1,987 bases of DNA from Escherichia coli (GTDB lineage: Bacteria > Pseudomonadota > Gammaproteobacteria > Enterobacterales > Enterobacteriaceae): NCBI RefSeq assembly GCF_003334385.1, contig NZ_QOWN01000103.1. One strand, given 5' to 3'. Each line of letters opens with the position of its first letter. Position 1 is the stretch's first letter. The position numbers were made by a program, and so were the translations under genes. The notes under the pieces are model-generated. The model did not search any database and was not told the DNA's origin. It saw nothing but the letters and a program-made list of their open reading frames with translations. This document shows, piece by piece, positions 1 to 1,040 of the stretch.

Positions 1-471
1 TGGTGGCTGGTCTGCCGGGGGACGATTCATAAGTTCCGCTGTGTGCCGCATCTCACCGGGCGGCGCTTTGAGCACGGGGTGACGGACTGTTACACGCTGT
101 TCCGGGATGCTTATCATCTGGCGGGGATTGAGATGCCGGATTTTCATCGCGGGGATGACTGGTGGCGTCACGGTCAGAATCTCTATCTTGACAATATGGA
201 GGCGACTGGTTTTTACCGTGTCGCACTGACAGAGGCGCAGCCTGGCGACGTGCTGCTGTGCTGCTTTGGTTCATCGGTGCCGAATCATGCCGCCATTTAC
301 TGTGGTGACGGCGAGCTGCTGCACCATATTCCTGAACAACTGAGTAAACGAGAGAGGTATACCGACAAATGGCAGCGACGCACACACTCCCTCTGGCGTC
401 ACCGGGCATGGCGCGCATCTGCCTTTACGGGGATTTGCAACGATTTGGCCGCCGCATCGACCTTCGTGTGA
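1..471 (+). CDS. K: Phage tail tip assembly protein K (gpK-like), C-terminal part only; 5' end lies upstream of the window. The portion present looks like an NlpC/P60-type peptidase domain.
   Basis: Frame 1 is open from base 1 to the TGA at 469-471 (translation begins WWLVCRGTIHKFRCVPHLTGRRFEHGVTDCYTLF... and ends ...NDLAAASTFV). The ORF track's start at 43 is a GTG inside this frame, not the true start. The translation matches my recollection of the lambda gpK C-terminus. A Cys in a D-C-Y context (codon 88-90) and a His in an N-H-A-A-I-Y context (codon 286-288) fit NlpC/P60 catalytic motifs. Lies immediately upstream of I and J, as in lambda. Confidence 0.9.
   Translation, partial: WWLVCRGTIHKFRCVPHLTGRRFEHGVTDCYTLFRDAYHLAGIEMPDFHRGDDWWRHGQNLYLDNMEATGFYRVALTEAQPGDVLLCCFGSSVPNHAAIYCGDGELLHHIPEQLSKRERYTDKWQRRTHSLWRHRAWRASAFTGICNDLAAASTFV
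350..357 (+). promoter_or_regulatory. Possible purine-rich ribosome binding site for I, lying inside the K coding sequence
   Basis: GAGAGAGG at about 350-357, roughly 11 nt upstream of the I ATG at 369. The spacing is slightly long, and initiation may instead depend on coupling to K translation. Confidence 0.3.
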
Positions 472-1040
472 AAACGGGGGCTGAAGCCATCCGCGCACTG
501 GCCACACAGCTCCCGGTGTTTCGTCAGAAACTGAGCGACGGCTGGTATCAGGTACGGATTGCCGGGCGGGACGTCAGCACGTCCGGGTTAACGGCGCAGT
601 TACATGAGACTCTGCCTGATGGCGCTGTGATTCATATTGTTCCCAGAGTCGCCGGGGCCAAGTCAGGTGGCGTATTCCAGATTGTCCTGGGGGCTGCCGC
701 CATTGCCGGATCATTCTTTACCGCCGGAGCCACCCTTGCAGCATGGGGGGCAGCCATTGGGGCCGGTGGTATGACCGGCATCCTGTTTTCTCTCGGTGCC
801 AGTATGGTACTTGGTGGTGTGGCGCAGATGCTGGCACCGAAAGCCAGGACGCCCACGGCAGCAAGTACAGATAACGGCAAACAGAACACCTATTTCTCCT
901 CACTGGATAACATGGTTGCCCAGGGCAATGTTCTGCCCGTTCTGTACGGTGAAATGCGCGTGGGGTCGCGGGTGGTCTCTCAGGAGATCAGCACGGCAGA
1001 CGAAGGGGATGGTGGTCAGGTTGTGGTGATTGGTCGCTGA
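369..1040 (+). CDS. I: Phage tail tip assembly protein I (gpI-like), complete, 223 aa
   Basis: ATG at 369-371, TGA at 1038-1040, 223 codons. Translation MAATHTLPLASPGMARICLYGDLQRFGRRIDLRVKTGAEAIRALATQLP... matches my recollection of lambda gpI in sequence and length. Overlaps the 3' end of K by 103 nt in a different frame, as in lambda. N-terminal ~90 aa is charged/mixed (reported ubiquitin-like fold in gpI), followed by a long Gly/Ala-rich hydrophobic stretch. Confidence 0.95.
   Translation: MAATHTLPLASPGMARICLYGDLQRFGRRIDLRVKTGAEAIRALATQLPVFRQKLSDGWYQVRIAGRDVSTSGLTAQLHETLPDGAVIHIVPRVAGAKSGGVFQIVLGAAAIAGSFFTAGATLAAWGAAIGAGGMTGILFSLGASMVLGGVAQMLAPKARTPTAASTDNGKQNTYFSSLDNMVAQGNVLPVLYGEMRVGSRVVSQEISTADEGDGGQVVVIGR

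Follow-up and report, generated by a model that had tools for sequence, protein, structure and literature searches.

Organization of the K/I junction

The window, i.e. the entire 1987 nt stretch of Escherichia coli DNA that was analysed, harbours on the plus strand the 3' part of gene K (1..471) for the tail tip assembly protein K, represented by its NlpC/P60 domain and C-terminal tail, and gene I (369..1040) for the tail tip assembly protein I of 223 aa. The assignment of K is based on the list of open reading frames, Pfam, the lambda annotation and alignment A2, that of I on the same list, Pfam PF06805 and chain I of PDB entry 8iyk. In the list, K is a frame 1 open reading frame at 43..471 that runs off the left end of the window and terminates with TGA, and I is a complete open reading frame with an ATG start; the two share positions 369-471, i.e. 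103 nt. I is read in the -1 frame relative to K, with codons starting at 0 mod 3 for I and at 1 mod 3 for K. The double use of these 103 nt, by the 3' end of K and the 5' end of I in different frames, is confirmed, and the coordinates, the frames and the approximately 34 plus 34 residues given in a preliminary description of the locus agree with the list.

The features of the junction are all located on the plus strand. The I start codon (369..371; site 1) is composed of the last base of a K Lys codon and the TG of a K Trp codon, and is preceded by the Shine-Dalgarno-like sequence GAGAGAGGT at 350..358 within the K codons for R-E-R. The first part of the overlap (369..407) is the 13-codon I leader MAATHTLPLASPG, which lies over the end of the K NlpC/P60 domain, WQRRTHSLWRHRA. 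The second part (408..468), the dual-coded core, combines the K C-terminal tail with the beta1-turn-beta2 segment of the ubiquitin-like domain of I. It begins with an in-frame ATG for Met14 of I (408..410; site 2), the position of which is the start codon, equipped with a GGAG Shine-Dalgarno sequence, in the mEp044 and Pasteurellaceae clades. The K stop codon TGA (469..471) closes the overlap, and TGA, TAA or TAG occupies the same position in 12/12 diverse lambda-clade sequences.

The K/I overlap is a long-annotated arrangement of phage lambda and was already known, as the preliminary description had stated; the lambda record, with K at 14276..14875 and I at 14773..15444, carries the identical geometry with the same 103 nt overlap. 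The overlap is equally annotated in phage 2851, Gifsy-1, HannyBb and Stx2a_WGPS6. The window shares 95-97% identity with lambda-like phages, including lambda (95% over 1987 nt). It does not represent lambda itself, and the best match, at 96.6% identity, is a phage. An identical copy of the I protein is encoded by some IMG/VR prophages.

Downstream of I, the I-J intergenic region contains at 1058-1079 a GC-rich hairpin of 9 bp (GAAACCGCC UGCG GGCGGUUUU) with a U-rich run on its 3' side, just 5' of the GGAG and the ATG (1101) of J. The centroid fold has an energy of -15.2 kcal/mol (z -1.6), and a consensus terminator scan made no call for this hairpin.

Identity and structure of the K and I products

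Protein I matches the Pfam model PF06805 Lambda_tail_I (E 1.8e-28; residues 14-97 on model positions 2-83 of 83) and PHROG 32 'tail assembly protein' (E 1e-82), and no NCBIfam model was matched. In phmmer searches, it matches lambda gpI with near identity along the entire protein (PDB 8iyk chain I; E 2e-138), and also residues 133-222 of gpI in 9e7m. Membership of the family is thus indicated by the PF06805 profile as well as by the correspondence of the C-terminal domain to gpI of the lambda tail tip.

The K translation of the window (156 aa) matches the Pfam model NLPC_P60 (PF00877; E 5.6e-13) at residues 20-133. The Cys and His columns of this domain are invariant in alignment A2 (C121, H187 and H199/H200). 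The JAB/MPN part of K is located upstream of the window; in full-length relatives its residues E19, H68, S69, H70, S78 and D81 are invariant, and the AlphaFold2 model is confident.

A side observation concerns the N-terminus of K in lambda. The annotated lambda protein (199 aa) is short compared with most relatives, which have 245-248 aa (L001:1230-1372, upstream of window position 1), and a K open reading frame of this length beginning with MTETESAILAHARRC is present in 78/82 lambda-clade loci. Lambda encodes the same N-terminal peptide in another frame, with a deletion of 1 nt relative to the relatives just before the annotated ATG (GAGG-CTATTTCC in lambda versus GAGGATTATTTCC in the relatives). 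Owing to this deletion, approximately 46 residues of the JAB/MPN domain, among them the conserved Glu, are missing from the annotated lambda K.

With respect to the overlap, the AlphaFold2 model of K, with a mean pLDDT of 94, contains a confidently predicted C-terminal helix (residues 230-244; pLDDT of about 93), which corresponds to nucleotides 415-459. The model of I has a pLDDT below 50 at residues 1-9 and predicts strands at residues 15-19 and 29-32 as part of the ubiquitin-like domain. Taken together, the two models predict that 408-468 encodes a helix in K and a beta-hairpin in I.

Distribution of the overlap and conservation of the K tail

The preliminary description had stated that the overlap is conserved, which holds for the lambda/Stx/Gifsy/Citrobacter and Providencia clades, where it amounts to 97-103 nt (97 nt in Providencia-like prophages), but not beyond them. 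It measures 58 nt in mEp044-like phages and in Pasteurellaceae prophages (37 unique arrangements), and is reduced to 1 nt in Enterobacter phage AS5, 4 nt in Pseudomonas phage D14Q and 8 nt in phi80. The overlap is absent from HK446 and one Mannheimia phage, in which an extra gene and a terminator are located between K and I; insertions have eliminated it in Mannheimia phages. The 13-codon I leader is limited to the lambda/Stx/Gifsy/Citrobacter and Providencia clades.

In Mannheimia phage 535AP2 and HK446, K and I are separated by small extra genes that possess terminators or promoters of their own, and phi80 carries the lipoprotein gene MorF between I and J (loci of the junction extras: L085:633-900, L089:568-888 and L088:1511-2106). 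These extra genes indicate that the K-I and I-J junctions tolerate insertions in some lineages.

Lambda-type K extends about 21 residues beyond a conserved RH[KQ] motif, and this tail, with the motif [FL]-x-[GA]-I-x-[NE]-D-[LI], can be aligned across four clades; beyond lambda, it was detected in IMG/VR in Providencia-like, mEp044-like and Pasteurellaceae prophages. The K proteins of AS5, D14Q and phi80 possess no tail and end 3-5 residues past the motif. In Mannheimia phages, inserts of 29-930 nt part K from I, and nevertheless both the K tail and the I N-terminus are retained, which indicates that each product needs its own end. The last approximately 20 residues of K are hereby shown to be a conserved structural element and not a by-product of read-through. 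A trace of the duplication by which K and I must have been parted in Mannheimia phages was not detectable between K-tail DNA and the 5' DNA of I, as the identity of 44-45% compares with 42-43% for the null (95th percentile 48-49%).

Selection in the two parts of the overlap

Synonymous and non-synonymous change was compared across the lambda, Providencia and mEp044 clades, as the preliminary description had proposed. For the lambda clade, 77 unique sequences with 73-98% identity were aligned and parsimony steps per site were counted by codon phase. Third positions of K accumulate 4.2 steps per site in the K-only flank, compared with 1.27 in 369-407 (p 0.005 versus the flank) and 0.85 in 408-468 (p 1e-5 versus the flank). 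Third positions of I undergo 3.9 steps per site in the I-only flank (472-700), where 8% are invariant; in 408-468 the rate is about 2.6, with 10/20 positions invariant (p 0.0017). The equivalent of 408-468 is suppressed in both frames also in the Providencia clade (p 1.7e-5 and 1.4e-6) and in the mEp044 clade (p 2e-7 and 4e-9).

The core 408-468 is thus, as judged from its substitution pattern, truly dual-coded with both products under purifying selection. Two signatures of overprinting were considered, and independent homology is present for both frames; synonymous depression in both frames is observed for 408-468 in three clades, and in 369-407 for the K frame only. In the latter segment, the K frame has a pN/pS of 0.14 and the I frame one of 3.0, and the third positions of I follow a K-like codon-phase pattern. 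Within 369-407, the lambda clade shows a significant suppression of K-synonymous change (p 0.005), which does not reach significance in the Providencia clade (p 0.07). Based on the K-like pN/pS, residues 1-13 of I are a passenger, the leader evolving like K coding sequence in general. Both the Pfam model and distant homologues of I start only at residue 14. The expectation that the overlap constrains the evolution of both proteins consequently holds for the 408-468 part in three clades, but not for 369-407, where only the K frame is constrained.

The mean at I third positions of about 2.5 had raised the possibility that the K tail is an unconstrained read-through; this was rejected, as 10/20 sites are frozen. 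The mean is misleading since it is carried by the two hypervariable sites 413 and 437 with 15 steps each. These sites, which change approximately 15 times each on the tree, are the only fast I-synonymous sites in 408-468; they are synonymous in I (GCG/GCA and TTG/TTA) and toggle the K residues R/H and C/Y, respectively, a pattern which points to recurrent mutation or to recombination between two alleles.

Start signals of gene I

Both site 1 and site 2 consist of the last base of a K codon and the TG of a K Trp codon. At site 1, ATG is present in 61/61 unique sequences (40/40 of the lambda clade and 21/21 of the Providencia clade), created via K AAA followed by TGG in lambda and via AGA or CGA, both rare Arg codons, followed by TGG in Providencia. 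This ATG is partly dictated by the K Lys/Arg-Trp residues, which leave no freedom beyond the third base of the first codon. Upstream, the predicted duplex of 350-358 with the 3' end of 16S rRNA in the window has an energy of -9.3 kcal/mol, which ties with the strongest value in the K-only part (21-340). The GAGAGG at 352-357 shows no variation among 78 aligned sequences, even at the synonymous sites 354 and 357, and GAGG is kept in the Providencia clade though the next K residue is V or A and not R. The invariance of the ATG and the upstream GAGG in 61 unique sequences of two clades despite differing K codons argues that the K/I overlap is beyond chance. The distance from the Shine-Dalgarno sequence to the AUG at site 1 is 11 nt in lambda and 13 nt in the Providencia clade; long spacing usually lowers initiation efficiency.

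Start codon and Shine-Dalgarno sequence switch together between clades. In the lambda clade, ATG is found at site 1 in 40/40 and at site 2 in 38/40 sequences, with mean Shine-Dalgarno energies of -9.0 and -1.5 kcal/mol, respectively; the Stx clade has ATG at site 1 and CTG at site 2 (mean -8.5 and -1.5 kcal/mol). The Providencia clade combines ATG at site 1 (21/21) with CTG (13), TTG (6), GTG (1) or ATG (3) at site 2, with means of -6.3 and -1.5 kcal/mol. Conversely, the mEp044 clade has no start codon at site 1 and always ATG at site 2 (-2.4 and -6.5 kcal/mol), and overlapping Pasteurellaceae arrangements have a free CTG/TTG at site 1 and always ATG at site 2, made via CAA, GAA or GCA followed by TGG (means of -2.7 and -6.4 kcal/mol). 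The site-2 Shine-Dalgarno sequence GGAG of the clades with the 58 nt overlap derives from the K W-R codons TGG AGA, where lambda has TGG CGT. This directly observed co-switch is the best available support for lambda-type I starting at 369, and ATG369 is most likely the I start as judged from these signals.

An alternative is that in lambda proper I starts mainly or also at AUG 408 (Met14), which would reduce the functional overlap to 64 nt and make the 369 start a minor one or an annotation convention; in a weaker version, both starts are used and give rise to isoforms of 223 aa and 210 aa. This start would coincide with residue 14, the first one covered by the Pfam model and by every distant homologue, and is the exact start used by the 58 nt clades; furthermore, the 13-codon leader is unconstrained in the I frame, and ATG408 is retained in 38/40 unique lambda-clade segments across the K codons GCA, GAA and GTA, all with A as third base. 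On the other hand, AUG 408 is not preceded by a Shine-Dalgarno sequence (-2.2 kcal/mol in the window, clade mean -1.5), as the ancestral GGAG in TGG AGA has been replaced by TGG CGT in the lambda clade. Codon 14 is CTG in Stx and mostly CTG/TTG in Providencia, both of which retain ATG369 and GAGG, and M, L and V at this codon fit a hydrophobic strand residue just as well. As a description of lambda proper, the AUG 408 start is accordingly considered rather unlikely. Met14/ATG408 is probably the ancestral I start and in lambda proper may possibly act as a secondary one. The literature searched, namely cryo-EM papers and a virion mass-spectrometry table, provided no direct evidence on the gpI N-terminus: cryo-EM models of the lambda tail tip display gpI only at residues 134/135-223 (PMC10721106, PMC12617516), and virion mass spectrometry recorded a single gpI peptide, the sequence of which is not given in the table.

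The three K Trp codons TGG at 370-372, 394-396 and 409-411 create NTG in the I frame at codons 1, 9 and 14. At codon 9, lambda has CTG, many sequences of the Providencia clade have TTG, and three Citrobacter/Raoultella-type prophages (L093, L094 and L099) have ATG.

The start of I is not annotated uniformly in public records, which put it at codon 1, codon 23 or a site far downstream. RefSeq phage 2B8 (L260:767-1372) has I begin at the TTG of codon 23 (equivalent to window position 435), which removes strand beta1. In Providencia phage PSTCR8lys (L100:1785-2228), I is annotated from a downstream TTG, with the full open reading frame MAETNTLNL... intact from the ATG at L100:1566.

Alternative modes of I translation

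The preliminary description had considered that translation of I may be coupled to that of K, a proposal which finds no support. The K stop codon (469-471) lies approximately 100 nt downstream of the I start at 369, which excludes termination-reinitiation; a stop within a few nucleotides of the start, as this mechanism requires, is not present, and the GTGA at 468-471 is not conserved. In addition, no stable structure was found over the Shine-Dalgarno sequence and AUG, as positions 330-430 of the window fold with -21.3 kcal/mol compared with a shuffle mean of -25.2 kcal/mol (z +1.28). An initiation region that folds no better than shuffled sequence leaves nothing for K-translating ribosomes to unmask.

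A programmed -1 frameshift fusing K to I, as in lambda G/GT, would agree with the position of I in the -1 frame of K, with PHROG 28576 (399 positions), which matches K at profile positions 56-204 and I at profile positions 187-393, and with the fusion of TAPI to TAPK or TAPJ that occurs in some prophages (Iyer et al., 2006; PMC1779556). The junction itself speaks against it. A slippery heptamer X XXY YYZ in the K frame was not found in 345-468, nor was a homopolymer run of at least 5 inside the overlap 369-471, the sole such run in 340-480 being GGGGG at 476 after the K stop; a stable downstream structure is equally absent. As I moreover possesses its own conserved Shine-Dalgarno sequence and AUG, and relatives with K-I inserts do without a fusion, the frameshift was rejected as very improbable. 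Phrog_28576 looks like a family of K-I fused open reading frames from lambda-like phages, which are either real fusions or errors caused by 1-nt indels, and phrog_35166 and phrog_31 contain I-like segments inside longer proteins.

Finally, the overlap could be a mere artefact of annotation, with translation of I beginning at the K stop or beyond it, e.g. at the GTG 468-470 overlapping the TGA. This reading deserves hardly any weight and was rejected. Although GTGA 468-471 resembles a classic stop/start coupling signal and one RefSeq record begins I inside the overlap at codon 23, this GTG is GTA or ATA in Gifsy-1, HannyBb and Citrobacter prophages, the strong suppression of K-synonymous sites in 408-468 is that expected of a translated I frame, and I residues 14-34 constitute the conserved first strands of the Pfam domain.

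Proposed origin and significance of the overlap

Cumulatively, K and I are quite probably separately initiated proteins with a two-layered overlap, in which I is started at AUG 369. Both proteins would be translated from the same late mRNA in frames one base apart, K-translating ribosomes continuing to the TGA at 469-471 and other ribosomes binding GAGAGAGGT within the K codons at 350-358 and starting I at AUG 369. In the older layer, 408-468 (58 nt elsewhere), the K tail lies over the first approximately 20 codons of the I ubiquitin-like domain. The younger layer, 369-407, may have arisen in the lambda/Providencia lineage as the I start moved 39 nt upstream. Hereby, the K W-R codons TGG AGA, which provide the GGAG of the old start, would have changed to TGG CGT, and a new Shine-Dalgarno sequence and AUG would have been fixed upstream on another K Trp codon. 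The move would have added a 13-residue leader, probably disordered, with a sequence dictated by K. Initiation at 369 and the direction of the start switch are what we infer from the co-variation of the two signals among clades.

More tentatively, the overlap can be regarded as an ancient dual-coding module that prophages of Enterobacterales and Pasteurellaceae have in common, with a start jump of 39 nt in the lambda lineage, and lambda might make isoforms from AUG369 and AUG408.

Confirmation of the overlap as such changes nothing, as it is textbook lambda annotation. The additions are modest and consist of the two-layer structure, the switch of Shine-Dalgarno sequence and start codon, and the K tail as a conserved helix, the latter as predicted by the model. 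Comparative support for the gpI start codon is useful where public records disagree, and K-synonymous mutations have been identified that could separate the two candidate I starts. The junction may also serve as a worked example of a long phage gene overlap that grows by relocation of the start site. The overlap joins the end of K, a predicted protease, to the start of I, its predicted substrate with a ubiquitin-like domain; should the K helix contact the I beta-grasp, it would establish a physical link between two interaction surfaces that co-evolve. A literature search for treatments of the K/I overlap yielded nothing relevant.

Comparison with known systems

Lambda G/GT, in which the downstream frame of tail-assembly genes of the same operon is reached by programmed -1 frameshifting, shares with K/I the operon and the -1 frame. 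K/I of the window differs in that a slippery heptamer is missing and I is equipped with its own start signals.

Phi80, T1-like phages and Pseudomonas siphophages, with short overlaps (1, 4 or 8 nt) of the stop/start coupling type, share the gene order L-K-I-J and the protein families with the window. The K tail is, however, absent in these phages, and the codons for RHK (AAGGA) provide the I Shine-Dalgarno sequence. Stop and start are adjacent, which makes termination-reinitiation possible there, unlike in the window.

The overlaps of mEp044-like phages and Pasteurellaceae prophages resemble the window in that the K tail lies over the first approximately 19 I codons in the -1 frame under dual constraint. 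In these phages, on the other hand, I starts at the equivalent of Met14 via the GGAG in the K codons TGG AGA and possesses no 13-codon leader, and a stop codon in the I frame is often located just 5' of the start.

K/I of lambda has the same genes, the same frames and the same 103 nt overlap, with I of the window differing from gpI at a few residues.
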